From Candidatus Micrarchaeia archaeon (GTDB lineage Archaea; Micrarchaeota; Micrarchaeia; Anstonellales; Bilamarchaeaceae), in the NCBI GenBank assembly GCA_033853355.1, contig JAWOLP010000022.1, positions 1-56,722 on the forward strand: a stretch of 56,722 nt of DNA. The letters run 5' to 3'. The notes under the pieces were generated by a model. That model was given only the letters and a program-made list of their open reading frames with translations, ran no database searches and was not told where the DNA came from. How positions within the stretch are numbered: position 1 is the stretch's first letter; the number at the start of each line of letters is the position of its first letter. Shown in pieces: positions 4,790 to 37,664 of the stretch. Position numbers and translations under genes: made by a program.

Positions 4790-4792
4790 TAT

Positions 4793-5206: not shown

Positions 5207-5218
5207 GCCACCACCCCT

Positions 5219-13558: not shown

Positions 13559-13666
13559 CTTACCGAACCTCTGGTCCTGTGCCTCCCGCACAGTTGATAC
13601 GCTGGTTATGATGGTAAAGAATAAATATATGCTTGATTTCGAAAAGACCGGACAAATGTAAGGAGC

Positions 13667-13674
13667 TTTTATAA
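13667..13674 (+). promoter_or_regulatory. TATA box for the lrp-like gene
   Basis: TTTTATAA centred about 29 nt upstream of ATG 13700. A second AT-rich box (AATAAATATAT, about 13620-13630) faces glnA. Confidence 0.55.
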
Positions 13675-13699
13675 GGATGACCCAGGTATGCACTAAAAT

Positions 13700-15789: not shown

Positions 15790-15870
15790 GAATGTATATT
15801 GTCTGAAACTGTATATAAAGATATGCAAAAGTGGAAGATGTATGATGGCTGAAGCGGGAGCGGACCCTCT

Positions 15871-17238
15871 TCAGATCGCGGCCTCGTACGACTCCCACGC
15901 CGGCAGGGCGGCGAGCTGGCGCTTCCTCTGCTCGAAGCGTCTCCGCTCGCCGTTCACGAGCGGCGAGAGCTTGTATATCTCATGCCCCGCCGAGCCTTCG
16001 TCGGCCTTGACGTGCATGTCTACGGTACGGACTATCAGCTCCATCGGCACCATCCGCTCGTGCGCCGAGACGGTGTCGAGGTGCACGCTCTGGTAGAGGG
16101 TGACAGGCTTCGGCCGCGAAGCGTAGTCCTTGGGGAATATCGTGTGGAGGTCCGGGACCCCGCATTCGGCCGCGGCTCTCCGTATCCCGCCCTCGTACAG
16201 GTAGGACACGTAGTCGTACATCCTGGCCTGGGTGTCCGCGATTATCATGGCGCCCGACCAGTCGTGCACCTTGCTTATCGGGATGCCCTTCTTGGCCGAC
16301 TTGTCCATCAGCCCGCCGGCTCCCTTGAAGGGGCGCACCGCCACCGCGATCGTGTCCCGGTCCAGCCGCGGCAGGACGGAGGACACCGTCGGGAGGTCAT
16401 AGGCGACGAGCACCTTCAGCCCGAAGCGCTTGGCCATCCCGTGTAGCGCCAGCTGCATCATGAGGTTCGTGTTGAGGAGGGCCGGCATCATGGCGTCAGC
16501 CTCCTCGGAGACCCTGGCGAATGCCGCCGGGTCCATGTAGTACATGGCATTGTCGCGCATCTCGCGGTAGGCGACGGTGGAGCTGCCCCAGTCCGCTATC
16601 GGGCAGTATATCCTGAGCATCGGGTCGGCCCAGGCGCGCTGGACCTCCTGCCAGCTCTCGTGCATCGGGAACACGCCTGGCATCCGGGTCTTGGCCGCGC
16701 TGACCGTGTCCGTATCGTGGACGGTCATCATGTCCGCGATGCGCGCATAGAGAGCGACGATCATGTCCGTCTGGTCGAAGCGGCCGTCGCTGAGGAGCAT
16801 CCGGTACTCGGCCGAGCGGTCGCCGGAGGTCGCGTCGAGCGTCTTGAGCATGCGCTGGAGGGCCGCCCTGGCCGCGAATCCCTTGCTGAGGCCGGAGGCC
16901 GGCAGGTACGCGTCGGATTCTATGGGGTGATAGAGTATGAGCTCGGCGACCGCCTTCGAGAACCGGTCCAGGCCCTCCTCGCGGGCGACTATGAGCTTCC
17001 CGCGGAGCGCTGCGTCCAGCACCTTCACGACGTGCCGGTACATGGGCTCAGCGTTCAGGTCGATGTAGTGCCCCTTCGCTTTCTCGACCATCATGACGAG
17101 CTCGCGGCATCCGCAGCCGCAGACGCCGGCGTTGGCCACCGATACCGGCTCGAGGAGCGGCCCGGAAGGCGTCCACATCCTGGAGCGCGCTGCGCCCACG
17201 GCAGCTTCGCCTATCCCCAGGTTCATTGTGGTTGCCAT
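15871..17238 (-). CDS. Second divergent RelA/SpoT-homologue domain protein
   Basis: VRPFKGAGGLMDKSAKK, VHDWSGAMIIAD, KDYASRPKPVTLYQSVHLD and MELIVRTVDMHVKADEGSAGHEIYK parallel the RelA_SpoT motif order. Start set at MATTMNLG (17238), about 26 nt after TATA-like ATATATTTAAAT. Confidence 0.6.
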   Translation of the reverse strand: MATTMNLGIGEAAVGAARSRMWTPSGPLLEPVSVANAGVCGCGCRELVMMVEKAKGHYIDLNAEPMYRHVVKVLDAALRGKLIVAREEGLDRFSKAVAELILYHPIESDAYLPASGLSKGFAARAALQRMLKTLDATSGDRSAEYRMLLSDGRFDQTDMIVALYARIADMMTVHDTDTVSAAKTRMPGVFPMHESWQEVQRAWADPMLRIYCPIADWGSSTVAYREMRDNAMYYMDPAAFARVSEEADAMMPALLNTNLMMQLALHGMAKRFGLKVLVAYDLPTVSSVLPRLDRDTIAVAVRPFKGAGGLMDKSAKKGIPISKVHDWSGAMIIADTQARMYDYVSYLYEGGIRRAAAECGVPDLHTIFPKDYASRPKPVTLYQSVHLDTVSAHERMVPMELIVRTVDMHVKADEGSAGHEIYKLSPLVNGERRRFEQRKRQLAALPAWESYEAAI

Positions 17239-17377
17239 AGGTAATTTATGGCTCGAACCCGATTTAAATATATGCTTTTCCATTTTCTGACACACCGGTG
17301 ATCATTGTCGCGATTCCTGGCCGTTGTGCTGTTCGGGTCTCCGGAGATTTATAAATGCGTGTCACAGAAAAAGAGGC

Positions 17378-23831: not shown

Positions 23832-25568
23832 TCACTCGACCGTGACGCTCTTGGCCAGGTTCCTCGGCCGGTCCGGGTTGATGCCGCGCAGCACGCTCAC
23901 GTGGTACGCGAGGAGCTGGAGGGGGACTATCAGGGCGAAGGGATAGAGGACCGGGTCGATGCCCTTGGGGAGGCGTATCGAGTATCCGCTCTCGGCCGCC
24001 ACTTCGTCGTCATCGGTGACGGAGACGATGAGGCCCCCCCGCGCCTTGGCCTCCTTGATGTTGCCGAAAAGCTTGGTCGCGGCCTCGTCCTTGGGAGCCA
24101 GGGCGACCACTGGGACGCCTTCCTGGATGAGGCTTAGCGTGCCGTGCTTCAGCTCGCCGCCCGGATACGCCTCGGAATGTATGTAGGTGATCTCCTTGAA
24201 TTTCAGCGAGGCCTCGTAGGCTATGGGGACGTTCCGCCCCCGCGCTATGAAGAAGACGTTCTCCGAGCCGGCGAGCCTCTGGGCGATTTTCTTGACGTCG
24301 TTTTCGCTCTCGAGCATCTTCCCGATCAGCTCCGAGAGCCCCTCCAGCCGTTCCTTGCCGTAGAATAGCTTGAAGATGACCGCCAGCTGCGACGTGAACG
24401 TCTTTGTGGCCGCCACGCCGGCCTCAGGGCCGGCGTTGAGGAAGACGACCTTGTCGGCCAGGCCGGTTATCGTCGAGCCGACGATGTTGGTCAGGGCGAG
24501 CACCTTGCATCCCTTGGCGAAGCGGATCGCCTGCAGGACGTCGGCGGTCTCGCCGCTCTGGCTTATGGCCACTATGAGGGTGCCTTCCGAGGGCCTTGCG
24601 ATGAAGGGATAGTCGCTCGCTATGAAAGCCTGCGCGTTCTTCCCCTCCGACTGGAGGAGCAGCGAGAGCATCATGCCCGCGTGGTAGGACGTGCCGGCCG
24701 CGATGATGTCGATGCGCCCGTGCGAGCCTATGAGCGCTTTGGCGTCCTCGACGTCGGAGGAGAGGCTCTCGACTATGAAGTGCTTCTGGTCCATGATCTC
24801 CTTGAGCATGAAATGGGGGTACCCGCCCTTCTGGGCTAGGTCCAGGCTCCAGTCGACCTGCACCTGCTTCCTGCTCAGCTCGCGCCCCTCCAGCGAGAAT
24901 ATCTTGTAGCCGCTGCGCGATATGAAGGCCGCATCGCCTTCCGAGAGCGGGACGAAGGTCCGCGTGAATTTCAGCATCGCCGGTATGTCCGAGGCGCAGA
25001 ACATCTCGCCCTTGCCCACGCCGATGACCAGCGGGCTGTTCTTCCGGGCCAGGAAGATCCTGCCTTCGGGGTCCGAGGGCGACATCGCCACCACCGCGTA
25101 GGAGCCCTCGATCGCCGAGACCGATTTCAGGAACGCTTTCATGAGAGGCATGCTCTTCGCGTTCTCCTCGATGAGGTGCGCGAGGACCTCCGAATCGGTC
25201 TCGGAGACGAACCTGTGCCCCTTGGCGAGCAGGTCCTTCTTCAGCGCGGAGAAGTTCTCTATGACGCCGTTATGGACCAGGATGACGTTCCCGCCGCAGT
25301 CCGTGTGCGGATGCGCGTTCTCCTTGCAGACCGACCCGTGGGTGGCCCACCGGGTGTGGCCGATGCCGACGCTGCCGGCGAGGGCGGTGAACTGGAGGGC
25401 TGTCGAGACTTCTTCCACCATCCCCCGGTCCTTCCTGACCTCGGCTTTCTTCCCGTCGGACACTGCTATCCCCACGGAGTCGTAGCCGCGGTATTCGAGC
25501 CTCTTGAGGGCGTCGGTGATTATCTTGGAGGCGCTGCCGCTGCCGGCATAGCCTATGATTCCGCACAT
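23832..25568 (-). CDS. glmS: Glutamine--fructose-6-phosphate aminotransferase (isomerising)
   Basis: N-terminal MCGIIGY (Ntn Cys), two SIS domains, C-terminal ...NLAKSVTVE. 578 aa. Confidence 0.97.
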   Translation of the reverse strand: MCGIIGYAGSGSASKIITDALKRLEYRGYDSVGIAVSDGKKAEVRKDRGMVEEVSTALQFTALAGSVGIGHTRWATHGSVCKENAHPHTDCGGNVILVHNGVIENFSALKKDLLAKGHRFVSETDSEVLAHLIEENAKSMPLMKAFLKSVSAIEGSYAVVAMSPSDPEGRIFLARKNSPLVIGVGKGEMFCASDIPAMLKFTRTFVPLSEGDAAFISRSGYKIFSLEGRELSRKQVQVDWSLDLAQKGGYPHFMLKEIMDQKHFIVESLSSDVEDAKALIGSHGRIDIIAAGTSYHAGMMLSLLLQSEGKNAQAFIASDYPFIARPSEGTLIVAISQSGETADVLQAIRFAKGCKVLALTNIVGSTITGLADKVVFLNAGPEAGVAATKTFTSQLAVIFKLFYGKERLEGLSELIGKMLESENDVKKIAQRLAGSENVFFIARGRNVPIAYEASLKFKEITYIHSEAYPGGELKHGTLSLIQEGVPVVALAPKDEAATKLFGNIKEAKARGGLIVSVTDDDEVAAESGYSIRLPKGIDPVLYPFALIVPLQLLAYHVSVLRGINPDRPRNLAKSVTVE

Positions 25569-25600: not shown

Positions 25601-26821
25601 TTATTGGATGAACTCGACCCTGGCGGTGTCGCGGTCGTAGAGGGCCAGCGTGATGGTCTCGCCGTGCCCCGAGAGCGTATCGATCTCGGCGGAGCTCTGG
25701 AGGAGCTTCCTCCGCACCGCCCTGAGGATCTCGATGTCCGTGTCGAGTATCACGATGTGGCGGCTGCCATCCGCCTTCCCGACGCCCGACACGTGGCCGC
25801 CGTCGAGGAATCCGGCGTACCTCAGGGAACCGACCGCCGAGAGGGAAAGGGAGTTGCCGTTGGACGCCGTCCTGAAGTCTTCGGTGACGCAGAAGATCTC
25901 GTTCGGGCTCGAGTCGAATATCTGGCGGGGGCCGTTCACGCGTCCGAGCCGGTAAGGGTCATAGAAGACGATCGCGTGGGAATACTGATGCTGGGGGGTG
26001 ATGCCGTTCGCCATCGAGTACTGCCAGGTCATCCGGTTCACGTCCCGGAATTCCTTGTAGTATCCGTCGGGATTCGATTGCTCCCTGGAGACCCATTCCA
26101 GCTCGAACTTGCCGTCCTTCCAGCCCCTCCAGTTCTCGAAAAGCGGATGGACCTCGCAGTCATTGTCGGCAGAATCCAGGATGGCCAGCGCGTTGACCGC
26201 CTGGCTCCTCGCGTTCCATCTGGAGCGCATGTCCTGCATCTCTTCCCTGGTCTTGGCCTGGCGCCCTTCCCCCGGAGCGTCCTCTCCTATCGTCGCTATG
26301 GCATGCGTCATCGAATCGACGATGTGGTCGATCTGGGGATCGTTGACCCTCTCGCCTTTCACATGGTACGTATGCGCCGTCGCCTCGCCGCCGCATTCCG
26401 CATGCGTGGCGATATAGCCCCGCCCCCGGGGGGAATCGAGGGCCTTGAATGCCCCGCCATGCCGCACGACGGAGCCTGCGGTCCGCTCGTGTATCATGGC
26501 GAAGGCGAGCAGGTTCACGAGGTTGAAAATCGCCGACCGGGCGTCGACGCACTGCTTCACGGCCACGTCGTACTGGCCGGGGAGCCTGTGCTCGAGCGGC
26601 CCGAACCTGTCGGTGAAATCCCGGACCACCGAGACGACGCGCTCGTTGCCGATGAGCAGCGCTTTCTGGGACAGCTCGATCGGGATCGGCTGCCTGTTCC
26701 TCATGGCGCCGTAAACGTCCTCTATCAGAGGCCTTTCCGGGTGGGCCCGGTAGTAGTCGCTCTTCCTCTCATAAAACGTCCTTTTGACCTCTGCGAGGTA
26801 CATCTTTTTCGGGTCTGCCAT
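25601..26821 (-). CDS. Duplicated beta-carbonic-anhydrase-fold protein, paralogue A (divergent)
   Basis: 406 aa. QCVDAR (CxDxR), then ATHAECGG (HxxC) 49 aa later. The second half (IFDSSPNEIFCVTED...HIVILDTDIE) parallels the second domain of paralogue B and lacks the Cys ligands. Confidence 0.7.
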   Translation of the reverse strand: MADPKKMYLAEVKRTFYERKSDYYRAHPERPLIEDVYGAMRNRQPIPIELSQKALLIGNERVVSVVRDFTDRFGPLEHRLPGQYDVAVKQCVDARSAIFNLVNLLAFAMIHERTAGSVVRHGGAFKALDSPRGRGYIATHAECGGEATAHTYHVKGERVNDPQIDHIVDSMTHAIATIGEDAPGEGRQAKTREEMQDMRSRWNARSQAVNALAILDSADNDCEVHPLFENWRGWKDGKFELEWVSREQSNPDGYYKEFRDVNRMTWQYSMANGITPQHQYSHAIVFYDPYRLGRVNGPRQIFDSSPNEIFCVTEDFRTASNGNSLSLSAVGSLRYAGFLDGGHVSGVGKADGSRHIVILDTDIEILRAVRRKLLQSSAEIDTLSGHGETITLALYDRDTARVEFIQ

Positions 26822-26854
26822 ATCATCTACCTGGTGTGCCGTAGCAGGGCCAAA

Positions 26855-26870
26855 CCCAGCGCGCGCTGGG
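26855..26870. promoter_or_regulatory. Perfect 16-nt palindrome in the 5' region of paralogue A
   Basis: CCCAGCGCGCGCTGGG, 34-49 nt upstream of ATG 26821. Either an operator or a 5'-UTR hairpin. Confidence 0.4.
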
Positions 26871-26994
26871 GTCAGTCATGCTAAAGCAGTGTCACCGTAT
26901 TATTCCGTGTCCAAAAGTGTTTTTAATGATTTCGTTTTAATCATTTTTTTTTATTATTTCACACTAGTGATGGAAACACGGCCCAAGGCCTGAT

Positions 26995-27017
26995 TCCGAC
27001 GAGCGTCGGATTTTTTT
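26995..27017 (+). terminator. Hairpin plus T7 run (terminator-like) with no upstream plus-strand gene
   Basis: TCCGAC-GAGC-GTCGGA followed by TTTTTTT. Preceded by GGCC-CAA-GGCC and an AT-rich TATA-like tract (26936-26960). Could delimit a very short sRNA. Confidence 0.3.
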
Positions 27018-27021
27018 CCAC

Positions 27022-27037
27022 GTTCCCCGCGGGGAAC
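27022..27037. promoter_or_regulatory. Perfect 16-nt palindrome just upstream of the paralogue B promoter
   Basis: GTTCCCCGCGGGGAAC ends about 26 nt upstream of the TATA box GATTTAAAAC (27063-27072). The position is typical of an upstream regulator site. Confidence 0.45.
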
Positions 27038-27062
27038 GGGGAGGTGCAGGTGGATTGCTCAG

Positions 27063-27072
27063 GATTTAAAAC
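27063..27072 (+). promoter_or_regulatory. TATA box for paralogue B (leaderless)
   Basis: GATTTAAAAC centred about 26 nt upstream of ATG 27094. Confidence 0.6.
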
Positions 27073-27093
27073 ACGGCGGTAAGAGATACTGCC

Positions 27094-28293
27094 ATGTCAA
27101 ACAGGCTCCCGCAGGGGATGCGGCACGTGGCCGCGCTCCATCACGAAGAACATGAGAAAAGGCACGCCGTGTTCATGAGCTATCATGCCGCGGACCAGCA
27201 GGAGCGGATACAGAAGAAGATCCGGCAGCGCCTGATGCTCGACCCGATCGAGGCGGCCTACGCCCTGCAGGAGGGCAACAAGAAGCACGTCTCCCGCGTG
27301 GAGGAGTTCCAGGGGGATTATCCCGAGAAGATAAAGACGCTCATGCTCGTCTGCGCCGACGCGCGCATGGGCGGCATGTTCGAGTTCGACGATTTCGCGA
27401 AGAGGGGGATTGCCGCGGTGTACGTCGCCGGCAACGTGTCCGACTTCCTGCAGACCGCGGGCGTCAAGGAGATATTCAGGCGGATGGACAACGATTCCTC
27501 GATAGTCATCACGGGCCACGCCAAGTGCGGCGCGGTCCATTGCGCGGCCGAGAAGGGCCATTACGACCATCTCCGGAACATCGCCAAGCTCCTCCACCTG
27601 GTCGCCCCGACCGGCGAGATAGACAACGTGAAGGCGCAGGCGGAGGCGCTTGCCGGGAGCGATGAGTTCCGGAAGCTGTCGGAGAAGAAGAACGTCCATC
27701 TGGTGACGGCGTACGTGGACATCGCCCACCACACCCCGCACGTGAGGCTTGTGGAGGACGGGGCCACGAGGGAGCAGGATCGGGAGCTGATTGCAAGGCT
27801 CGACCGGAAGTTCCAGGAATCGAACGCCGGGGAGGACCTCGCGTCCCACCAGTTCGCGCACACGGTCGTGATATCGGGGCCGGCCCTGCCTTTCGACGCC
27901 CGGGAGATCTTCTCTGCCGGCTCGAACGAGATATTCTGCGTCTCGGCGGGCGATTACGGCGGCAAGCGGCACAAGGGCCAGCTTTCCGAGGCCGAAGTCG
28001 CTTCAGTGGAGATGGCCTCCCTGGGCATGCTGGACGAGAAGGCCGTCGCCTCGATCGAGTATTCGGTCGAGAAGAACAAGTCGCAGCACATACTCCTGCT
28101 CCACACCGACCTGGCGGTCATCGATGCCTGGGAGGCGCAGCTGATAAAGATGAGCGAGATAGTCTCGAACGCCCTAGTCGAGGGGAGGCTCGAGATAACG
28201 ACCGCTGTGTATGATTCGAGCACCGGGCGCGTCACCATGGTGCGCCATCTCGTCAACGAGGATGCGGCTGCCGCGATATCTTCGAGGACCTGA
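27094..28293 (+). CDS. Duplicated beta-carbonic-anhydrase-fold protein, paralogue B (best-conserved active site)
   Basis: 399 aa. LVCADAR...VYVAGNVS...IVITGHAKCGAVHCA, with C-to-H spacing of 55 aa and HxxC, as in canonical beta-CAs. The second domain (REIFSAGSNEIFCVSAGD...SIEYSVEKNKSQHILLLHTDL) keeps the beta-CA strand pattern but has non-ligand residues at the CxDxR positions. N-terminus is His-rich. Confidence 0.75.
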   Translation: MSNRLPQGMRHVAALHHEEHEKRHAVFMSYHAADQQERIQKKIRQRLMLDPIEAAYALQEGNKKHVSRVEEFQGDYPEKIKTLMLVCADARMGGMFEFDDFAKRGIAAVYVAGNVSDFLQTAGVKEIFRRMDNDSSIVITGHAKCGAVHCAAEKGHYDHLRNIAKLLHLVAPTGEIDNVKAQAEALAGSDEFRKLSEKKNVHLVTAYVDIAHHTPHVRLVEDGATREQDRELIARLDRKFQESNAGEDLASHQFAHTVVISGPALPFDAREIFSAGSNEIFCVSAGDYGGKRHKGQLSEAEVASVEMASLGMLDEKAVASIEYSVEKNKSQHILLLHTDLAVIDAWEAQLIKMSEIVSNALVEGRLEITTAVYDSSTGRVTMVRHLVNEDAAAAISSRT

Positions 28294-28324
28294 CAGGTCG
28301 GTGCGGAACCGGGATGACATCCCT

Positions 28325-29689
28325 TCAATCCAGCAGCGCAAGCACGGAGGGCTCCTTTATGCGCCGGTTGAGCACCGACTTGGGATCCCTCGGGAAATCC
28401 TTTATCGACTGGTGGATCATCTTCCGCAGGTCGGGCTCGACTGTGGACACGTATGAGTTTATCCCCTCGGCCTCCACCTCTGGCACCGTGAGCACGTGCA
28501 GATGGACCCCCAGATGCTGCACGATGGCGTTCATGATCGGGTCGTTCTTGACCTTCCTCCGGATGTTGTTCGCTTCGAGGACGTCCTTGCCCAGGAGGTA
28601 ATAGTCCCGGAGCCCCAGGGTTACCATCGAATAGCATATGCCCCCCAGCTTGTAGGGGCCGAAGCTGCTGAAGGGGTTCAGAACGTTGGAGCCGGTCGCC
28701 AGGAAAACGCTGCCTGCGACATCGTAGTTGCTCGACTCCTTCAGGTTGAGGTAGCGTATCAGCGTCTCCCTCGGGTTGGTTATGTCCGGCGCGCAGATGA
28801 GGCCGCAGACCGGCTTCTGCTTGCTGCTCCGGCGTATCCGTTCAGGATGGTTTTCCGGGAGGTTGTCCATCACATATCGCATGAGGCCTGCCATGTCGTC
28901 GAGTATCGTGTGGACGTGGAGGTTGTCGTCTATGCGTATCTTCAGGCCCGTCCTGTAATTGAGGATCCCGCAGTTGACGTGCACCGGTATGCGTTCCAGC
29001 TCGTTGTCCGCATCCAGGGCCGTCCTCAGGTAGCGCTTGGAGATCAGGGGCTGCTTGATGAGGTCTATGCTGGTGAGGAAATCGTCCGCGCTCTTCCCCT
29101 CATGCGCATACACGCTCTTGAGGAGGAGGAACAGGTCATCGTCGTTGTCCAACATGATCGTGCGTTCCTTCTTCGCGGTCTTGTCGAAGAAGGTGATCTC
29201 CGGCTTGATATTGTAGAGCATGGCCCGGATGGCTTTCCACGCCTCGTTGGAGTGGCTCATGCCGCAGTTGATCTCCGAGTCGGGGTCGATGACCTCCACC
29301 TCGGTTTCCGGGTTGTAGACCAGCTTGTTGACATCCGGCACCTTGATGTCGGCATGTCCTGAGATCTGCACGACCGTCCGGTGCAGGACGCCAGGCCCGG
29401 GATCCACCCGCACCTTCTCGCCGAATTCGGCCAGGCTGCTGTTGAGGCCGCCCTTGATGATGTCTTTCAGCTCGATGTAGGATTGCTTGTTCACGACCGA
29501 GCCGGCTATCGTGACCCGCGAGACGATGACCTTGACGCCACGGGCCGCGTATTCCAGGATCAGGCTGCGCAGTATCTGGTTCTCCACTGAGCCCCCGTCC
29601 CGCGCGTCTCCGCAGCGGACCTGGATCACATGCTGTATCTCATCCACCGGATAGTTCACATTGAAAGAAAGAGTCGTCCTAGTTCCCAT
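28325..29689 (-). CDS. Beta-carbonic-anhydrase-fold protein, paralogue C (CsoSCA-like spacing, large insertions)
   Basis: 454 aa. VRCGDAR (CxDxR)...RVTIAGSVV...QISGHAD...EINCGM, with His 86 aa after the first Cys and the second Cys 30 aa later. C-terminal half (VFLATGSNVLNP...DYYLLGKDV) is related to the degenerate domains of A and B. Lies 156 nt downstream of the NuoB-like gene on the same strand. Confidence 0.65.
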   Translation of the reverse strand: MGTRTTLSFNVNYPVDEIQHVIQVRCGDARDGGSVENQILRSLILEYAARGVKVIVSRVTIAGSVVNKQSYIELKDIIKGGLNSSLAEFGEKVRVDPGPGVLHRTVVQISGHADIKVPDVNKLVYNPETEVEVIDPDSEINCGMSHSNEAWKAIRAMLYNIKPEITFFDKTAKKERTIMLDNDDDLFLLLKSVYAHEGKSADDFLTSIDLIKQPLISKRYLRTALDADNELERIPVHVNCGILNYRTGLKIRIDDNLHVHTILDDMAGLMRYVMDNLPENHPERIRRSSKQKPVCGLICAPDITNPRETLIRYLNLKESSNYDVAGSVFLATGSNVLNPFSSFGPYKLGGICYSMVTLGLRDYYLLGKDVLEANNIRRKVKNDPIMNAIVQHLGVHLHVLTVPEVEAEGINSYVSTVEPDLRKMIHQSIKDFPRDPKSVLNRRIKEPSVLALLD

Positions 29690-29845: not shown

Positions 29846-30391
29846 TCACTTGCCCTTGCGCTTCTTGTCGATGGCCATGCCGGCCTTCAGTATGCCTGCG
29901 AGCAGCGCGTACGGCTCGGGCGGGTTGCCTGGGACTTTCACATCGACCGGGATGACATCCTCGACGCGGCCGGAGCCTGCGAGGGCGTAGCCGCCCTTGA
30001 ACGGCCAGCCGGTGCATGCCCCGTCGCCGGCCGCGACGACCGCGCGCGGCTCGGCCATCGCCTCATAGGTCTTGAGAAGGGCGTCGCGCATGTTCAGCGC
30101 GACCGGTCCCGTGGCGATGAGCACGTCTGCGTGGCGGGGCGAGGCGACGAAATGCACCCCGAAGCGCTCGGCATCGACGCGGGGCGCCATCATCAGCTGC
30201 TCCTCCAGCTCGACGTCATTGGGCGAGCCGCAGTCCACCATGCGGACATGGATGGAGCGCGAGAAGAGCGAGAGGGGCCTCTGCTTGAGCAGCAGGGCGA
30301 CTTCCCGCACCGCCGGATCCGGCGACTTTTCCGACACCTTGTCGGGATAGAAATCAAACACGAATTTCAGGGTCTCTAGCAGCATGTTCAT
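29846..30391 (-). CDS. NuoB/HyfI/HycG-like small subunit lacking most [4Fe-4S] ligands
   Basis: VASPRHADVLIATGPV and IPVDVKVPGNPPEP match the family. The cluster motifs read VDCGSPNDVELE (family: GSCNGCEIE), GDGACTG (Cys kept) and PGNPP (family: PGCPP). Confidence 0.85.
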   Translation of the reverse strand: MNMLLETLKFVFDFYPDKVSEKSPDPAVREVALLLKQRPLSLFSRSIHVRMVDCGSPNDVELEEQLMMAPRVDAERFGVHFVASPRHADVLIATGPVALNMRDALLKTYEAMAEPRAVVAAGDGACTGWPFKGGYALAGSGRVEDVIPVDVKVPGNPPEPYALLAGILKAGMAIDKKRKGK

Positions 30392-30394
30392 CCC

Positions 30395-31963
30395 TCACAG
30401 GTCGGTCCCGGCATAGGACATGTTGAAGCTCTTGTTTATGAGCGGGAAATCCGGCACGATATTGCCTTCCACGGCCTTCTCTATGCCGCGCCAGTCCCTG
30501 AAGGACGCGGTGCGGCAGGCGAGGCGCCTTATCCTCCCCTCGCCGGAGAGCTCCACGAGGAAAGCGCACCCTCCGCGGGGGGCCTCGGTCCAGCCGACGC
30601 CGGTGCGCAGCTCTGTGCCCGTCTGGGCCTTGATTTCGCAGCGGGTCTTGCCTTCCGGCAGGTTGGAGACGAGCCACTTGATGAGCCTGGCCGATTCCTT
30701 GACTTCGGCGAGCTTGACCAGGAACCTGGCGAGCACGTCGCCCGTCTTCTCGGTGCGCTCGCTGAAACCAGCTGCGGAGTATGCCGAGTAGGGCATGACC
30801 TTGCGAAGGTCGCAGCTCACCCCGGACGCCCTGGCGACCGGCCCGACGAGGGCAAGGTCCTTCGCGACGGCCTGGTTGACGCGGCCGGTCGAGAAGACCC
30901 GGTCGAGGTATGTCGAAGAGGTGAGGGTCATCCGCTCGACCCCGTCGAGCCTCTTCTCGAAGAGGGCCAGGGCCTCCTTTATCGCGGATATCTCCTTTGC
31001 GCCAAGGTCCTTCGAGACGCCGCCGACGGCGCACACGCCCCGGAGGAAGCGGTTGCCGCTCACCAGCCGGTTCAGCCTCATCATGTCCTCGCGGAGGACG
31101 GCGAACCTGGAGGCGGAGAGCGTGAATCCCACGTCGGTGGGCATGCCGCCCAGGTCCGAGAGGTGGCTGTATATCCTCTCCATCTCAAGGAGGACCGCGC
31201 GAATGTATTCGGCCCGTTCCGGGACCTTGAGCGAGAGGGCGCGTTCAACAGCATAGCAGTATGCGACCGAATTGGCGACCGACTCGTCGCCGGATATCTG
31301 CTCGACCGTAGGCAGGATGTCGGCGGGGGCCTTCCCCTCGACCGCGCTCTCGAGGCCGCGGTGCAGGTAGAACATCCTCACCTCCATCTTGTTGATCTTC
31401 TCGCCCACCACGTGGAACCTGAAGTGGCCTGGCTCTATTATGCCGGCATGCACCGGCCCGACGGCGATCTCGAACTCGCCCTCGACGCCGGTCCCCTTCA
31501 TCGGATAGGTCCGGCTCGCCTGCTTCGGCATGGGCTTGCCGCTCATCGGGTGGGACTGGGGCAGGATGCCCTCGGGATGGAAGAGGAGCGGCCTCTGGTC
31601 CGGGATGTCCTGGAGCTTGAGGCCGGTCAGGTCCTGCATCTTCCTCTCGTCCCACAACGCGGCGTTGGCCTTGGCCGACAAAGCGGCGAATTCCTTCCCC
31701 TGCGACTGGAGCACGAGCATCTTGCCGGAGTCCTGGAGCCTGAAGAGGTAATAGACCGTGAATCCCGCTTTCTCGCCCTGGGGGGAGATGAAAGCGGAGT
31801 CGAAGACCGCGCCGTTGCCCATGGATGCCTCGCATGCGGGGACCAGATCGCCAGGCTTCACTTTCGCCCAGATGCAGCCTCCGCGGTCTTCCCATCTCTC
31901 CATCGACCCGCTCCGCATGGATTTCTGGATGATACCCATGAACCGTTTGGCTTCGTCAACCAT
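30395..31963 (-). CDS. Fused NuoC-NuoD / HyfG/HycE-like large subunit lacking all NiFe cysteine ligands
   Basis: GPVHAGIIEPGHFRF and FYLHRGLE are typical of group-4 large subunits. The N-terminal motif reads EQISGDESVANSVAY instead of RxCGxCxxxH. The C-terminus reads NMSYAGTDL instead of DPCxxCxxR. Confidence 0.85.
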   Translation of the reverse strand: MVDEAKRFMGIIQKSMRSGSMERWEDRGGCIWAKVKPGDLVPACEASMGNGAVFDSAFISPQGEKAGFTVYYLFRLQDSGKMLVLQSQGKEFAALSAKANAALWDERKMQDLTGLKLQDIPDQRPLLFHPEGILPQSHPMSGKPMPKQASRTYPMKGTGVEGEFEIAVGPVHAGIIEPGHFRFHVVGEKINKMEVRMFYLHRGLESAVEGKAPADILPTVEQISGDESVANSVAYCYAVERALSLKVPERAEYIRAVLLEMERIYSHLSDLGGMPTDVGFTLSASRFAVLREDMMRLNRLVSGNRFLRGVCAVGGVSKDLGAKEISAIKEALALFEKRLDGVERMTLTSSTYLDRVFSTGRVNQAVAKDLALVGPVARASGVSCDLRKVMPYSAYSAAGFSERTEKTGDVLARFLVKLAEVKESARLIKWLVSNLPEGKTRCEIKAQTGTELRTGVGWTEAPRGGCAFLVELSGEGRIRRLACRTASFRDWRGIEKAVEGNIVPDFPLINKSFNMSYAGTDL

Positions 31964-31966
31964 GCG

Positions 31967-33433
31967 TCATGCACCTCTTATGGCCGCGGCCGCCATCTGG
32001 AGCAGCCGTATCAGCTCGCCTGGAGGCGTCAGCCCGAAGTATATCGCGATCAGCAGGAGGACAACGAAGGGGGCTATCATGCTCAGGGCTGGCTTGAAAT
32101 CCGTGGCGATGGCGGATTTCGACCCGAAGCTCATCTGCGATGTCCGGTAAAGGAGGCTCGCGAAGGTTATCGTCGTGAAGAGTATCAGCAGGAGGGCGGG
32201 GATGTACTGGCCGGATGAGAGGGAGGCGGCGAGGATCCCCAGCTCGGAATAGAATGTGCCGAAGGGCGGGCTCCCGGAGATGCCGACGGCTATGAAGACG
32301 AACGAGATCGCGACTATCGGGAGCACCTGCGCCGCCCCGCTTATGAGGCGTATCTCCTTGGTGTTGAAAGCCAGGGCGATCATGCCGCTCGCCAGGAATG
32401 CGAGGGGCTTGGCGAGCGAATGCGATATCATGTGGAAGAGGGCTGCGAACACGCCTATCGGACCCCCGACCCCGAGGGCGAGGACGACGATGCCCATGTT
32501 CTCGACGCTGGAGTAGGCGAGCATGCGCTTGAGGTTGTCCTGGAAATACAGCCGCAGGGCCCCGACGGCCAGCGATAGGAGGCCGAAGACGATGAGCAGG
32601 GTGGAGGCGAAGGAGATCAGCTGAGGGTAGGGGCTCAGCATCTGGTAGGCCCGCACGAGGCCGTAGAAGGCGATGTTGAGCAGGACCCCTGAGAGCAGGG
32701 CGCTGACCGGGGTGGGCGCCTGGCTGTGCGCGTCCGGCAGCCACACATGGAGCGGGACCAGGCCGATCTTCGTGCCGAAGCCGACGACTATGAACGCGAA
32801 GGCTATCTTGAGGAAGAAGAGGTTCGCGCCCGCGCGGGCGGTGAGCAGGCTGGGCCAGTCGCCGCCGGACGACGAGCCGGGCTGGAAGACCGCGTAGAGG
32901 AAGAACATGATGCCGACGAGAGCCAGCAGGATGCCGACCGAATTGATGATGAAGAACTTCCATGCCGCCTCGATCGAGTTGGATGTGTTGTAGAAGCTTA
33001 TGAGGAACACGGTCGCGAGCGTGGTGGCCTCGATGGAAGCCCACATGACGATGATGTTCGAGGCGAGCGTGGCCGCGAGCATCGAAGCTAGGAAGAACGA
33101 GAGGAGGCCATAGTACATGCCCAGCTGGCCCTCGGAGACGATCTTCTCCTCGACCTCGTGGCGGATGTAGCCCACCGAATACACGAACACGAAGAAGGCG
33201 ACCACGACCGTGAGGGACGTGAAGACCGCGGAGACCGAGTCCATGTAGAGGTAGCCGTAGAAGTCGACTACCGGGGCAGGCGACTGCATGAAGCCCCAGA
33301 GGGCCGCGAAGGCGAAGGCGGCAGCGGCCGCGGCGCCCGCGACGGCGACGATCTCGGAGAAGCGGGGGTGCTTCTGGGAGAGGAACGCGAGCAGGCCGGC
33401 GATGATCGGAGCGAGTATTATCAGTTCGAGCAT
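31967..33433 (-). CDS. NuoN/HyfF/MrpD-like antiporter-type subunit
   Basis: 488 aa, about 14 TM helices. Proton_antipo_M-type core (WASIEATTLATVFLI, PLHVWLPDAHSQAPTPVSALLSGVLLN). Confidence 0.85.
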   Translation of the reverse strand: MLELIILAPIIAGLLAFLSQKHPRFSEIVAVAGAAAAAAFAFAALWGFMQSPAPVVDFYGYLYMDSVSAVFTSLTVVVAFFVFVYSVGYIRHEVEEKIVSEGQLGMYYGLLSFFLASMLAATLASNIIVMWASIEATTLATVFLISFYNTSNSIEAAWKFFIINSVGILLALVGIMFFLYAVFQPGSSSGGDWPSLLTARAGANLFFLKIAFAFIVVGFGTKIGLVPLHVWLPDAHSQAPTPVSALLSGVLLNIAFYGLVRAYQMLSPYPQLISFASTLLIVFGLLSLAVGALRLYFQDNLKRMLAYSSVENMGIVVLALGVGGPIGVFAALFHMISHSLAKPLAFLASGMIALAFNTKEIRLISGAAQVLPIVAISFVFIAVGISGSPPFGTFYSELGILAASLSSGQYIPALLLILFTTITFASLLYRTSQMSFGSKSAIATDFKPALSMIAPFVVLLLIAIYFGLTPPGELIRLLQMAAAAIRGA

Positions 33434-33437
33434 TGTG

Positions 33438-35096
33438 TCACCTTCTCTCTATGAGGTCGTCGAGCTCCTTGGTGTCGAGCGTTCCCACGGTCCCGCGTAT
33501 CTTCAGCGCGAGCAGTGTCGCGACTATCGTGAGCATCAGCACATCGAAGAGGGCGACCGCTTCCCCCACGAACGGCACCTGGATCGGCAGGGCTGTCGGG
33601 AGCAGCACGGCCCCGTTCTCCATCAGCAGGAATCCGATGAGCTGGAGCAGGAGGTTGGGCTTGACCGCGATTATCAGCAGGCCGACCAGTATGAGCGATA
33701 TGACGAGGGGGAGCATGAGCGTCGTCCCGCCGAGGACCGACGACAGCACGAAGGCGAGCACGATGAGCACGCAGGAGTATATCAGCGCGCGTGCCGTGGA
33801 GACCGGCGCCCCCATGAACAGCGGGTCGAAGTCGAGGTTCAGGCGCAGGTCGGCCTTCGTCGCCTTGAAGACGTTGTAGAAGCGCATTGGGAGCAGCTTC
33901 ACCTCGCCCGGCATGACCCTGAAGAGGTGGTAGAGCAGGATGGGCACGAGTATGAGCTTGAAGAGGACAGTCGAGCCCAGGCGGAAGTAGGCGTCTATCG
34001 TCGGCTCGTAGAGCACCTGGGAGAGGAAGATGAGCACCAGGCATGCGCTCTGGAGCGCGTAGAGCTCGAGGCTCCGCCGGAACGTCGCGCTGAAGATGAA
34101 GTAGAGCGAGCTGAGGAGCATGATGAGGAGGAGCGCGGTCGTGATGTTCTCCCCCGGCTGTGAGGCGAGGAAAAGGCGGGAGAGGAACGCGAGGACTGAG
34201 AGGATCATTGCGAGGATCAGGAGCTCCCCGACCTTGAACAGCCTCACCTTCACGCTTATGCTCTCGACGGTCGCGGTGATGACCGAGAGCGCCACCCCGA
34301 TGCCGAGCACCGCCGCGGCCCTCTCGAGGCCGTCCTGGGGCACGAACGGCAGGAACAGGACGCCCAGGAGGCTGAACAGCAGGAATATCTTGGCCGCATG
34401 CGCCCATTCGATGAGGGCCAGGTCCGGGCCCGAGTTCTCGAGTATCATCGCCTCATGGACCATGGTCAGCTCCAGGTGGGTCGCCGGGTTGTCGAAAGGC
34501 AGCCGCCCGGTCTCGGCCAGTATTATGACGAAGAGGGCCAGCGCGGCCAGCCAGTGGGCAGGCGCTAGCGCCTCGGTCCATGCCGAGGCCCCCGAGGCGA
34601 GCGGGACGATCAGGCTGTAGCCGCCCGACACCGCGAGGAAAAGGACGACCGCGAAAAGCGCCGGCTCTATGAGCACCGAGTAGAGCATCTCCCTGCTCGA
34701 GCCCAAGCCCCCGAAAGCGCTGCCCGCGTCGAGGCCGGACAGCGCGGTGAGGAAGCGGCTTATGGAGAAGGTGTAGGCGAAGAAGATGATGCTCACGGCC
34801 AGGTAGGGCGACGAGGAGAGTATCGGGAGCATGAGCGATGCAATCGCGATGGACACGAAGCCCACGACGGGAGCTATGACGAACACGAACGATGTGACGT
34901 CGCTCTTCTTGGTCCCCTTGGAGAGGAGCTTCAGCACGTCGAAGTAGGGCTGGAGGATGGGCCCGCCGGACCTCCCCTGGAAGCGGGCCTTGACCTTGCG
35001 CATTATGCCTATCAGCAGTGGCGCGAAGATGAAGACGAAGAGGATCTGCAGGAGCGCCTGCGCCGCGAGCGGGATGTTTTCAAGCATATGCATCAC
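33438..35096 (-). CDS. Fusion of NuoH/HyfC/HycD-like and HyfE/NuoK-like membrane subunits
   Basis: The N-terminal ~300 aa carry the NuoH-type RKVKARFQGRSGGPILQPYFDVLKLLSKG motif. The C-terminal ~230 aa are a multi-TM HyfE-like module. 552 aa is about the sum of HyfC and HyfE. Confidence 0.78.
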   Translation of the reverse strand: MMHMLENIPLAAQALLQILFVFIFAPLLIGIMRKVKARFQGRSGGPILQPYFDVLKLLSKGTKKSDVTSFVFVIAPVVGFVSIAIASLMLPILSSSPYLAVSIIFFAYTFSISRFLTALSGLDAGSAFGGLGSSREMLYSVLIEPALFAVVLFLAVSGGYSLIVPLASGASAWTEALAPAHWLAALALFVIILAETGRLPFDNPATHLELTMVHEAMILENSGPDLALIEWAHAAKIFLLFSLLGVLFLPFVPQDGLERAAAVLGIGVALSVITATVESISVKVRLFKVGELLILAMILSVLAFLSRLFLASQPGENITTALLLIMLLSSLYFIFSATFRRSLELYALQSACLVLIFLSQVLYEPTIDAYFRLGSTVLFKLILVPILLYHLFRVMPGEVKLLPMRFYNVFKATKADLRLNLDFDPLFMGAPVSTARALIYSCVLIVLAFVLSSVLGGTTLMLPLVISLILVGLLIIAVKPNLLLQLIGFLLMENGAVLLPTALPIQVPFVGEAVALFDVLMLTIVATLLALKIRGTVGTLDTKELDDLIERR

Positions 35097-37087
35097 GAGA
35101 CCGCGTATATCGCGAATAACAGCACAAGGCCGAGCGTGATCATGAGGTACATCAGGTAGTCGCTGAGCTTGCCGGAATGGAACACGGCCGAGTACGGGGC
35201 CAGGTAGTGGAAGGCGCGGGAGGCCGGATCATAGATGATATAATTGAAGAAAGCCGAGCCGTAGGCCGCCGCGGGCTTCGACAGCGGGTCGAGCCAGGCG
35301 TTGAGCGAACGGGTCACGGGCATGGCGAATCCCGCGGCCGAATACTGCATGCGCGGCGTGACGTCCTGGTAGCCGCAGCCCCATGTCTCGCCTGCCTCGT
35401 GCTTCCGGTTCCTTCCCGCGAAGCGGAGCCCTGCCCAGAGGAGGGCCGAGCCCAGTACGAGGGCGATCAGCACCGGCGCTGTCTGGATCCCTTCGGCGTA
35501 GACCGATATCGAGGAAGCCGAGGCCGGGAAGCCGAGGGATGAGAATACGCCGAGAGCGGCCTGCGCCCCGCCGAGGGGAAGCGCCCCTGCGGCGACGCAC
35601 GCGAGCGCGAGGAGCCCCATGCCGGCAAGCATCGAAGAGGGCACCTCCTTGGCATGGGCCGCGTGGGCGCTCCTAGGCATGCCGAGGAACGGGATGCCGA
35701 AAGCCTTCACGAACGCGCCCACGGCGAGGGCGCTGGTGAGGGCCAGGAACAGGACGCCGAGGGAGAGCAGGAGGGAGAGCTGGGCCGAAGGGCCGATGCC
35801 GCCGAGCAGCGCCTCGAAGGTGAGCAGCTCGCTGACGAACCCGTTGAGCGGGGGTATCGCTGCGATGGAAGCGGATGCGAGGAGGAACAGCACGGCCGTG
35901 GCCGGCATGAGCTTGGCCAGGCCCCCGAGCTCCTCGATGTTCCGCTGGTGGGTGGAGTAGGCGATGCTTCCGGCTCCTAGGAAGAGCAGGCTCTTGAATA
36001 TCGCGTGGTTGAACGTATGGTAGAGGGCGGCGAACAGCGCCAGGGCGGCCAGGGCCGGGATCTTCGCCCATGCGAAGAGGACGGCCGCGCCGAGCCCGAT
36101 GAATATTATGCCGATGTTCTCTATGCTGTGCATGGCGAGCAGGCGCTTGAGGTCATGCTCCAGGAGCGAGTAGAGCACGCCGAGCACGGCCGAGAACATG
36201 CCGAGCACCAGGATCACCGTGCCCCACCACATGGCCGCCCCTCCGTCCATGATGTGGAAGAACCCGAACAGGACGCGGACGAGGCCGTATATCGCGACCT
36301 TGAGCATGACGCCGGACATGAGGGCCGAGACGTTGCTCGGCGCCTGGGGATGGGCCAGCGGGAGCCAGGCGTGCAGGGGGATTATCCCGCATTTCGAGCC
36401 GAATCCGATCAGGGCGAGCACGAACACCGCGTCCGCGAACATCGGCGCGTAGGAGGCCGCCCCGAAGGAGCTGAAGTCCAATGAGCCGGAGCCGCCGGCC
36501 AGTATCAGGAACATCAGGGTGAGGGCGACGGCCCCTATATGAGTTATTATAAGATAGTTGAAGCCCGCGGTCTTTACCCCCTCCTCGCGGTGCTCGTAGG
36601 TCACGAGGAAGAACGAGCTGAGCGCCATCGCCTCCCAGACGACCAGGAAGAGCAGGGCGTTCTGGGCGGTCACGACGAGGATCATCGAGAGGAGGAAGAG
36701 ATTGTAGAGGAAGGCGAAGCGCCCCAGGTTATAGCCCTTCTCGCTGTATTCGCTGGAATAGCCGAACGAGTAGATCGAGACCGCGGCGCCCACGAAGGCG
36801 ATGATGGAGACGAAAAGCCCGGAGAGGGCATCCACGCTGACAGAGAGCGTGCCCAGCGGCGCGCCGAGCTGGGCGAACACCATCGTGCCCGGCCCCATCC
36901 CGATGAACGGGGCGATCCCGGCGAAGAGGGCCAGGGCGCATCCGACTAGCGCGAGGCCGAAGCCCAGGACCGTGCTGGCGCGCTGGTTCCTCGAAGCGAG
37001 CAGCGAGAAGGCGGAACCGGCGATGAATGCCAGCATGGATAGTGCAAGTGCGGGCTGGCCGAAAATGTTCGGATCACTTATTTGCAT
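35093..37087 (-). CDS. NuoL/HyfB/HycC-like antiporter-type subunit
   Basis: 664 aa. WEAMALSSFFLV and PLHAWLPLAHPQAPSNVSALMSGVMLK are typical of the family. 4-nt overlap with the next gene. Confidence 0.88.
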   Translation of the reverse strand: MQISDPNIFGQPALALSMLAFIAGSAFSLLASRNQRASTVLGFGLALVGCALALFAGIAPFIGMGPGTMVFAQLGAPLGTLSVSVDALSGLFVSIIAFVGAAVSIYSFGYSSEYSEKGYNLGRFAFLYNLFLLSMILVVTAQNALLFLVVWEAMALSSFFLVTYEHREEGVKTAGFNYLIITHIGAVALTLMFLILAGGSGSLDFSSFGAASYAPMFADAVFVLALIGFGSKCGIIPLHAWLPLAHPQAPSNVSALMSGVMLKVAIYGLVRVLFGFFHIMDGGAAMWWGTVILVLGMFSAVLGVLYSLLEHDLKRLLAMHSIENIGIIFIGLGAAVLFAWAKIPALAALALFAALYHTFNHAIFKSLLFLGAGSIAYSTHQRNIEELGGLAKLMPATAVLFLLASASIAAIPPLNGFVSELLTFEALLGGIGPSAQLSLLLSLGVLFLALTSALAVGAFVKAFGIPFLGMPRSAHAAHAKEVPSSMLAGMGLLALACVAAGALPLGGAQAALGVFSSLGFPASASSISVYAEGIQTAPVLIALVLGSALLWAGLRFAGRNRKHEAGETWGCGYQDVTPRMQYSAAGFAMPVTRSLNAWLDPLSKPAAAYGSAFFNYIIYDPASRAFHYLAPYSAVFHSGKLSDYLMYLMITLGLVLLFAIYAVS

Positions 37088-37226
37088 ATTCTAAGACCTT
37101 CTGGCCGGTAAAATTCAACATAATTCAATGTGAAGATTTTTAAAGATGGCTGGGCTCGCCGGGTCGGCATGCCGGTCCGCGGCGCGTTTTCAGACTGTTT
37201 TTAATAATTCGGGGCGAGAGACAATC

Positions 37227-37664
37227 ATGGAAAAGGTCCTGATACTGAGCGGAAGCAGGAGCGACGAGGAGATAGCGAAGCAGGCGATGGACGTCCTCAA
37301 CGCATTCGGCGTGCCGTGCAGGTACGAGGTCGCCTCGGCCCACCGTAACCCGGAAAAGGTCGAGCGGCTCATGAAGGAATCGACGGCGCAGGTTTTCATA
37401 GGCATAGCCGGGATGAGCGCGGCGCTCCCTGGCGTGATGGCCTCGAGGACGGCCAAGCCGGTGATAGGGATCCCGGTCAACGCCTCGCTCATGGGCCTGG
37501 ACTCGCTCATGTCGATCGCCCAGATGCCCCCTAACGTGCCCGTCGCGTGCGTCGGGGTGGGGATGGGCAAGAACGCCGGCCTGCTCGCGGTCCAGATACT
37601 GGCCCTCGGCGATCCAGCGCTCGCGGCGAAGCTGGCCGAGTTCAAGGAGAAGCTCAAGCAGTAG
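37227..37664 (+). CDS. purE: N5-carboxyaminoimidazole ribonucleotide mutase / AIR carboxylase catalytic subunit
   Basis: ILSGSRSDEEI, SAHRNPEKV, GIAGMSAALPGVMAS, PVIGIPV. Start set at MEKVLIL (ATG 37227), about 22 nt after TATA-like TTTTTAATAAT. Confidence 0.92.
   Translation: MEKVLILSGSRSDEEIAKQAMDVLNAFGVPCRYEVASAHRNPEKVERLMKESTAQVFIGIAGMSAALPGVMASRTAKPVIGIPVNASLMGLDSLMSIAQMPPNVPVACVGVGMGKNAGLLAVQILALGDPALAAKLAEFKEKLKQ

Follow-up and report, generated by a model that had tools for sequence, protein, structure and literature searches.

What are three neighboring genes, whose products each appear to join one intact and one decayed carbonic anhydrase (CA) fold, doing in the genome of an archaeon? 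The question is raised by a stretch of DNA of 56,722 nucleotides (nt) from a Candidatus Micrarchaeia archaeon (contig JAWOLP010000022.1 of assembly GCA_033853355.1; the whole stretch is called the window below), in which genes A, B, and C lie side by side. A reading made from the letters alone (the sequence-only reading) had described them as three divergent paralogues, each with an active beta-CA domain followed by a degenerate one, and had likened this plan to the carboxysomal enzyme CsoSCA. All the strings, coordinates, and spacings that it quoted are present in the sequence, and its proposal of three divergent paralogues with a zinc-site and a zinc-less beta-CA domain was supported by profile-profile comparison, structure prediction, fold search, and residue conservation. 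We consider it likely that A, B, and C are lineage-specific families of the beta-CA superfamily, working as built-in pseudo-dimer carbonic anhydrases that supply CO2/HCO3-.

The first domain of each protein carries a putative metal site. In B, the motifs LVCADAR (C87), VYVAGNVS, and ITGHAKCGAVHCA (H142, C145) give the arrangement C87-x54-H142-xx-C145, and in A the motifs QCVDAR (C91) and THAECGG (H140, C143) give C91-x48-H140-xx-C143. C has RCGDAR (C26), SGHAD (H112), and NCGM (C142), so its second and third ligands are spaced as H112-x29-C142 and not as the HxxC kept in A and B. The Asp-Arg dyad within CxDxR is kept in all three proteins (D89/R91 in B, D93/R95 in A, and D28/R30 in C); an AG is also common to them, and A keeps the longer RxAG (HERTAGS). 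Within each family, the two Cys, the Asp, the Arg, the His, and the following Gly are invariant: C87, D89, R91, H142, C145, and G146 in the alignment of B (15 sequences), C91, D93, R95, H140, C143, and G144 in that of A (22 sequences), and C26, D28, R30, H112, C142, and G143 in that of C (12 sequences). In a broad alignment of C (55 sequences, 16 to 58% identity), H112, C142, G143, and M144 are still invariant, and the conservation of C26, D28, and R30 is 90% or more; therefore, nothing in the C family is conserved more strongly than the putative metal site. Such motifs are far beyond what chance would give, and it is from the conserved residues that domain 1 may be called active.

B is also recognized by the Pfam model Pro_CA (PF00484), with 41.5 bits over amino acids (aa) 83 to 205 against a gathering threshold of 25.7 bits, and its best matches among PDB sequences were Rv3588c and Cab. 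A and B align as homologues along their entire length (24% identity, 423 columns, E 8e-15; 99.6% by hhalign). C was joined to them by local matches, one to B around CxDxR...AG (E 0.005 pairwise and E 7e-5 by profile) and a second, colinear one between the C-terminal halves of C and A/B, found with the broader C alignment (E 2.6e-4). A profile made from four canonical 190-aa beta-CAs of related Micrarchaeia (the small-CA profile) matched domain 1 of A/B at 98% (E 9e-14).

The same profile also found domain 2, at 93% in A/B (E 2.8e-7, 121 columns, reaching the last two strands) and at 88% in C (E 2.9e-6), which, together with a structural alignment over both repeats of a tandem beta-CA (see below), supports the degenerate second domain described from the letters. 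The positions equivalent to Cys, Asp, Arg, His, and Cys hold non-ligand residues in this domain. For B, the sequence-only reading needs one correction of detail: the true CxDxR positions hold I260/G262/L264, and the motif FDAREIF aligns with the canonical VVPEFIF, with D268 and R270 opposite the VPE of "VPEFIFD," and hence they are not a retained dyad. Domain 2 has invariant residues of its own, namely Y287, D288, N307, and G342-H343-V344 in A, along with a family-specific GHVxGVG insert, and Q253, N278, E322-Y323-S324, H332, and H337 in B. It is under a constraint at least equal to that of domain 1.

One of the conserved residues suggests what the second domain may be for. A Gln is found 3 to 4 residues before the first strand of domain 2 in the three families (the invariant Q253 in B, Q291 in C with at least 90% conservation, and Q279 in A), and it aligns with the Gln of the canonical GQxP motif exactly in C and within two positions in A and B. 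In canonical beta-CA dimers, the GQxP Gln is supplied by the partner protomer to the active site of its neighbor. Because of this known role and the conservation of the Gln, domain 2 may be a built-in partner that completes the site of domain 1. One polypeptide with two beta-CA folds would then replace the obligate beta-CA homodimer, domain 2 acting as the partner protomer in cis and completing, via its Gln, a single active site at the domain interface. Such an enzyme would have one zinc site per ca. 400 aa, as do CsoSCA and DabA, the latter from inorganic carbon (Ci) pumps.

AlphaFold2 models were obtained for B (predicted local distance difference test [pLDDT] 85, predicted template modeling score [pTM] 0.88) and C (pLDDT 88.6, pTM 0.87). 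In B, the strand order of domain 1, b1(80-87)-b2(106-111)-b3(131-142)-b4(202-209)-b5(216-219), is repeated in domain 2 as b1'(257-261)-b2'(280-284)-b3'(332-337)-b4'(367-373)-b5'(380-388), and in C the secondary-structure order of domain 2 likewise repeats that of domain 1. The putative ligands occupy equivalent places in both models, with a Cys at the end of b1, a His at the end of b3, and a Cys at the start of the next helix; in C, C26 follows the strand 17-25, H112 ends the strand 101-112, and C142 precedes the helix 143-161. C is set apart by its inserts, 29 residues between the His and Cys ligands plus extra hairpins. Both models returned beta-CAs as their best Foldseek matches. For B, the best was 1DDZ, the tandem beta-CA of Porphyridium (E 2e-10, 488 columns), followed by many single-domain beta-CAs, and for C the best and sole significant match was again 1DDZ (E 9e-4, probability 0.99, 506 columns), and other beta-CAs ranked lower. 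Both alignment lengths exceed that of either query. For A, the fold may be taken from its full-length homology to B.

Several results weigh against this interpretation. On the Pro_CA model A reached only 13.9 bits (E 0.069), below the threshold; C had no Pfam match, and none of the 55 members of the broad C family matched any relevant Pfam model. By the Pfam criterion, only B belongs to the beta-CA family, and A and C are members of the superfamily by their residues, profile links, and predicted fold. C is tied to A and B only weakly by sequence, via the two colinear local profile matches, and the TM-score of its alignment with 1DDZ was modest (0.35). When the N-terminal and C-terminal halves were compared directly within each family by hhalign, the matches were not significant (E 0.035 to 0.4); therefore, the duplication shows up only by way of canonical CAs, and the two-domain architecture may have had one origin or several. 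The spatial clustering of Cys, His, and Cys was read from the topology of the models and not from distances. Finally, enzymes with the beta-CA fold and the same five residues can be hydrolases of carbonyl sulfide (COS) or carbon disulfide (CS2), and a simple CA function does not account for three to five paralogues in a genome of ca. 1 Mb. Other searches were also negative or marginal: nothing was above the cutoffs in NCBIfam for A, B, or C, the C profile matched zero chains among PDB sequences, and the sole CA chain matched by the A profile was Rv3588c, marginally (E 0.5).

To place the proteins among known systems, we compared them with the different kinds of beta-CA. The canonical enzymes (PF00484; for example Rv3588c of Mycobacterium tuberculosis, PDB 2A5V/1YM3, and the archaeal Cab, 1G5C) are single domains of 170 to 220 aa that require a homodimer, whereas A, B, and C carry a degenerate partner in cis. 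The Porphyridium purpureum enzyme 1DDZ is a single-chain pseudo-dimer and aligned over both repeats, with an identity of 11 to 12%; both of its repeats retain the zinc site, whereas the second repeat of A, B, and C is without ligands. The architecture of CsoSCA (PDB 2FGY) resembles that of A and B, with an N-terminal helical region, a catalytic domain with Cys/His/Cys and Asp/Arg, and a C-terminal beta-CA fold without zinc; it has one active site per polypeptide, as proposed here for the three proteins. C shares the catalytic and the zinc-less domains with CsoSCA but lacks the helical N-terminal region. The His and Cys ligands of CsoSCA are split by an insert, as in C, whereas A and B keep HxxC. 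The label "CsoSCA-like" given by the sequence-only reading therefore fits the architecture but not a specific kinship, since the CsoSCA Pfam families gave no match to A, B, or C even at E <= 10 and CsoSCA is absent from the top 50 Foldseek matches of B and C. The genomic setting is also different: CsoSCA sits in the cso operon, and the neighbors of A, B, and C, in an archaeal DPANN host, are GlmS, an operon of the energy-converting-hydrogenase-related (Ehr) type, PurE, and eRF1.

DabA (of DabAB/MpsAB) has a helical N-terminal region, as do A and B, and two asymmetric beta-CA-like domains that carry one Zn(Cys,His,Cys)/Asp/Arg site between them, as proposed for all three proteins; like C, it has an insert between the His and the Cys. 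It is a much larger protein (800 to 1000 aa, with an N-terminal domain of 280 aa and a membrane-inserting helical finger), whereas A, B, and C have 399 to 454 aa and no hydrophobic segment. The DabA family PF10070 (DUF2309) did not match any of them. DabA has a Leu at the position of the Gln, proposed to disfavor HCO3- binding, and A, B, and C keep the Gln, a pattern less suited to a gated CA than to an ordinary reversible one.

The three genes are real and under purifying selection. The ratio of nonsynonymous to synonymous substitutions (dN/dS) against the orthologues in a related metagenome-assembled genome (locus L010; loci are numbered L001 to L097) was 0.14 for B, 0.078 for the N-terminal half of C, and 0.049 for its C-terminal half, and no rival long open reading frame (ORF) with homology support exists in the A-B-C region. 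A pseudogene or a spurious high-GC ORF was ruled out by these values (0.05 to 0.14) and by conserved full-length homologues. The C orthologue of this close relative (92% identical; L003 7211-8576 and L010 10001-11363) is broken by a frameshift into ORFs of 181 and 276 aa on a 345-kb contig; probably this is an assembly error rather than a pseudogene, because both pieces have dN/dS values below 0.08. The highest Kyte-Doolittle hydropathy over 19 residues was 1.2 to 1.5, with no transmembrane-like segment in A, B, or C; therefore, they are taken as soluble proteins, and membrane anchoring of any of them was ruled out. A and B are transcribed divergently from a spacer of 272 nt, B and C are convergent, and C lacks the N-terminal arm of A and B (Table 1).

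The families are rare. Among 5.8 billion clusters, there were 14 full-length relatives of B, 24 of A (whose family counts 25 members), and 13 of C, and every named one belonged to Candidatus Micrarchaeota or Bilamarchaeum. An exhaustive HMMER search with the C profile gave 93 representatives out of 1.84 billion, the named ones being Micrarchaeia or "uncultured archaeon," and a C-type gene was present in 4 of 185,579 species representatives of GTDB. So far, and to the extent that the matches carry names, the three families appear to be restricted to the Micrarchaeia.

Table 1. Coordinates of genes A, B, and C, their predicted domains and neighbors in the window, and CA-like genes of related Micrarchaeial loci (L numbers)
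Feature	Positions	Strand	Description	Basis
Gene A	25601..26821	-	406 aa; helical arm aa 1-75, zinc-site domain ca. 76-246, zinc-less domain ca. 247-406	
A domain 1	26084..26596	-	Catalytic-type beta-CA	QCVDAR, IHERTAGSVVR (canonical RxAG), THAECGG; small-CA profile
A domain 2	25604..26083	-	Beta-CA-derived, no Cys/His/Cys triad	Small-CA profile, invariant residues
Gene B	27094..28293	+	399 aa, closest of the three to a canonical beta-CA; helical arm aa 1-75, zinc-site domain 76-222, zinc-less domain 223-388	
B domain 1	27319..27759	+	Catalytic-type	Pfam match aa 83-205, predicted strand order
B domain 2	27760..28257	+	Degenerate beta-CA fold	Strand order, small-CA profile
Gene C	28325..29689	-	454 aa, the most divergent of the three; zinc-site-type domain aa 1-254, zinc-less domain 255-454	
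C domain 1	28928..29689	-	Zinc-site-type	Ligand topology as in B, local profile match to B
C domain 2	28328..28927	-	Degenerate	Small-CA profile, match to A/B domain 2
GlmS	23832..25568	-	Directly downstream of A, same strand	
Ehr-type operon	29846..37087	-	Five genes	Pfam, alignments
NuoB/HycG-like small subunit	29846-30391	-		Pfam, alignment to HycG
NuoC/D-HycE-like large subunit	30395-31963	-		Pfam, alignment to HycE/MbhL
NuoM/N-like	31967-33433	-		Pfam
NuoH+K-like	33438-35096	-		Pfam
NuoL-like	35093-37087	-		Pfam
PurE	37146..37664	+	AIR (aminoimidazole ribonucleotide) carboxylase family; divergent from Ehr operon	Pfam AIRC, E 3e-51
Family D, fourth tandem beta-CA-like family	L001 1148-2407; L016 5430-6605; L017 8616-9836	-; +; +	391-419 aa (L001: 419)	
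Canonical beta-CAs of Ehr-less Micrarchaeia	L004 9242-9814; L008 5049-5624; L016 4758-5327; L017 7936-8553		189-205 aa	

The genes around A, B, and C bear on their role. No carboxysome shell or RuBisCO genes were present among the window ORFs scanned, nor was a small canonical beta-CA found in the 56.7-kb window by tblastn. Beyond C lies the Ehr-type operon, followed by PurE and then eRF1. In alignments to E. coli HycE and Pyrococcus furiosus MbhL, the R-x-CGxC of these proteins is matched by ISGDES in the large subunit of the complex and their DPCxxC by NMSYAGTDL; the small subunit has lost three of the four iron-sulfur (FeS) cysteines of HycG. Identical cysteine losses were found in three other Micrarchaeial genomes (50 to 72% identity), in which the complex as a whole is conserved at 50 to 87% identity. 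The operon has subunits like those of group 4 hydrogenases and complex I but without the NiFe CxxC motifs, and it encodes a redox-dead complex of the Ehr type, a group described as lacking the CxxC motifs and having an unknown function (PMC10284858). A true [NiFe] hydrogenase or formate-hydrogenlyase context, in which a CA would handle the CO2 from formate, was ruled out, since none of the four NiFe cysteines is left in the large subunit and only one of the four FeS cysteines in the small one. A similar complex of Ca. Fermentimicrarchaeum has apparently been named a "group 4e hydrogenase" (cited in PMC8561730), and this label may need checking for such a Micrarchaeial complex.

In related Micrarchaeial loci, we found a conserved block with the order eRF1-PurE-[CA genes]-A-GlmS. 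The synteny with PurE was seen in L004, L010, L011, L016, and L017, the order from A to GlmS is kept, with GATase/SIS neighbors of A, in L003, L004, L016, and L017, and the gene order of the close relative (L003/L010) is that of the window. A stood beside another CA-type gene in every locus examined. In the Ehr-less L016 and L017, eRF1, PurE, and a small canonical beta-CA are transcribed in one direction and a further tandem gene, A, and GlmS in the other. This gene, which stands in the place of B beside A in Ehr-less genomes, defines a fourth family (D), with the motifs CSDAR and GHHDCG and a degenerate second half. The canonical beta-CAs of the Ehr-less Micrarchaeia lie between PurE and the tandem CA genes, and in the Ehr-less L004 and L008 the small CA adjoins A. 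Other loci had C-C tandems or B alone. Where an Ehr operon is present, the arrangements differ. In L001 (GCA_016212505.1), C (55% identical) is divergent and upstream of the Ehr operon, while D lies downstream of the operon and on its strand, 33 nt past the small-subunit gene, and is followed by another CA-like gene; in L011, PurE is followed by a C relative (28% identical) that is convergent with the operon. The CA-like protein encoded at L001 1-942 (minus strand) has apparently lost its first-domain Cys.

We regard B as most probably a conventional enzyme that interconverts CO2 and HCO3- reversibly. A and C are probably zinc enzymes of the same or a closely related reaction, with an access or regulation that may have been altered by the GHVxGVG insert of A and by the 29-aa insert and hairpins of C. 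Since the block also holds PurE and, among relatives, a canonical beta-CA of 190 aa, these proteins may serve to supply or buffer the inorganic carbon used for carboxylation in a cell of minimal metabolism.

The position of C invites another explanation, which we regard as tentative and doubtful on balance. C (or D in relatives) would be docked on the redox-dead complex, whose antiporter-like subunits would draw on an ion gradient to drive CO2 hydration in one direction, trapping Ci, or the reverse, in the manner of a vectorial CA; A and B would be soluble equilibrium CAs. By analogy, DabA with DabB, CupA on NDH-1MS, and the gamma-CA domain of plant complex I would be comparable assemblies. 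The gap between the Ehr small-subunit gene and C, which follows it in the same orientation, is 156 nt, and a C- or D-type gene flanks Ehr in three further lineages in differing arrangements (L010, L001, and L011). The Ehr+C unit lies between PurE and the CA genes, at the position where Ehr-less relatives have the small beta-CA. Having lost its NiFe and FeS ligands, the complex can be no hydrogenase, the function of Ehr complexes is unassigned in the work cited above, and DabA shares the plan of these proteins down to the single zinc site and the His-Cys insert. The gene of DabA adjoins one for a NuoL-type antiporter-like protein, as C adjoins an operon with two PF00361 proteins, although the partner of DabA is a single DabB and the candidate partner here is a five-subunit complex. 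Adjacency of PF00361 genes to C or D was found in three other lineages, and many loci with A, B, C, or D had no Ehr operon. In L014 (GCA_016214485.1), a convergent Na+/H+ exchanger gene comes after a C homologue (4716-6029, minus strand), and an A homologue stands next, which is another hint of a tie to ion or proton transport.

This association was sought more widely by scanning metagenomes with the Ehr large subunit, which gave 80 loci (L018 to L097) with 34 to 61% identity in that subunit. The NiFe CxxC motifs were absent from all 80. In nearly all of them the large subunit ends in DFP(L/V)xNKSxNLSY(A/S)GxD(L/R) instead of DPCxxC, and in about a quarter SGDE(S/T) stands where the first CxxC would be. 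The large subunit of the window shares the NKSxNLSY(A/S)GxD signature with these metagenomic relatives, which appear to form a widespread Cys-less family with a conserved signature of its own. A CA-like ORF was found in none of the 80 loci, in flanks of up to 8 kb searched with hidden Markov models from the A, B, and C profiles and with the small-CA and D sequences, whereas all the controls (L001 to L017) were detected. In L018, the closest of the 80, which has only the downstream side on its contig, the gene downstream is an unrelated one of 671 aa. A general association of Ehr with CA was thus not found, and among the loci examined beta-CA-like flanking genes occur only in Micrarchaeial Ehr loci, in which the small subunit is also short of most FeS cysteines. 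The link would be specific to some Micrarchaeia, and what points to it is gene adjacency, within a block that is syntenic anyway. The occurrence of A, B, C, and D away from Ehr, the lack of a hydrophobic segment like the helical finger of DabA, the Gln kept in place of its Leu, and the absence of a PF10070 signal also speak against a vectorial enzyme. Nothing relevant on a link of Micrarchaeota, DPANN, or Ehr with carbonic anhydrase was found in the literature searched.

Less probable still, and in our view distinctly unlikely, is that A and/or C are not catalytic at all but regulatory or scaffold partners, such as a bicarbonate sensor or the hetero-oligomer partner of a true CA, with a structural zinc site. 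That A always adjoins a partner positive for Pro_CA (B, D, or a small beta-CA) would suit such a role, as would the position of A and C below or outside the Pfam model and the fact that beta-CAs form dimers of dimers. However, the whole catalytic set is invariant in both families, including the Asp-Arg dyad, which a pure scaffold would not need, and the conserved Gln of domain 2 suggests a working active site. It is very unlikely that one or more of the paralogues act on a small linear molecule other than CO2, as hydrolases of COS or CS2: the CS2 hydrolase of Acidianus and the COSase of Thiobacillus set a precedent, having the beta-CA fold with the same Cys/His/Cys and Asp/Arg and differing mainly in their access tunnels, and the family-specific inserts near the site in A and C and the number of paralogues suggest functional divergence, but no sulfur-metabolism genes lie next to A, B, or C, the conserved neighbors are PurE and canonical beta-CA, and no such enzyme with specific similarity was among the top Foldseek matches.

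Some other features of the window were noted. Two adjacent paralogues with RelA/SpoT domains (14170-15828 and 15871-17295, minus strand; 552 and 474 aa) are present, and a RelA_SpoT gene was also found in the syntenic L016. A glutamine synthetase ORF of 644 aa (12149-14083, minus strand) has ca. 190 residues before its Gln-synt_N domain, which reflect either a GTG start called too far upstream or an N-terminal extension of unusual length. Two Pfam-negative proteins of 699 and 218 aa (40405-42504 and 39776-40432, both on the minus strand) resemble a Pfam-negative pair of 701 and 222 aa near eRF1 in L017, a correspondence by size and position only, and may be a conserved pair of unknown genes.

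To our knowledge, the only single-chain beta-CA pseudo-dimers with one dead half described before were CsoSCA of bacterial carboxysomes and DabA of Ci pumps. If, as we think likely, each of A, B, and C is a carbonic anhydrase with its pseudo-dimer partner built in, DPANN archaea would have the same arrangement. At least four divergent families would share it (A, B, and C, with D in relatives), all of them crowded into a single locus of a very small genome; C is invisible to Pfam and NCBIfam, and A lies below their thresholds. They offer testable material on how a protomer that has decayed can still complete the active site of a beta-CA, as well as on why a reduced symbiont keeps three to five CA-like genes, the candidate reasons being the provision of Ci for PurE-type carboxylation and the homeostasis of pH or ions. 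The same holds for Ehr as an energy-coupling module for a carbonic anhydrase. Were Ehr with C or D to be an ion-gradient-coupled CA, it would be the first function for an Ehr-type complex and a fourth CA head on a membrane arm of the complex I family, assembled independently of DabAB, CupA/NDH-1MS, and the plant gamma-CA module. Should the link to Ehr be coincidental, three "hypothetical proteins" would still become members of the beta-CA superfamily with defined predicted catalytic residues.

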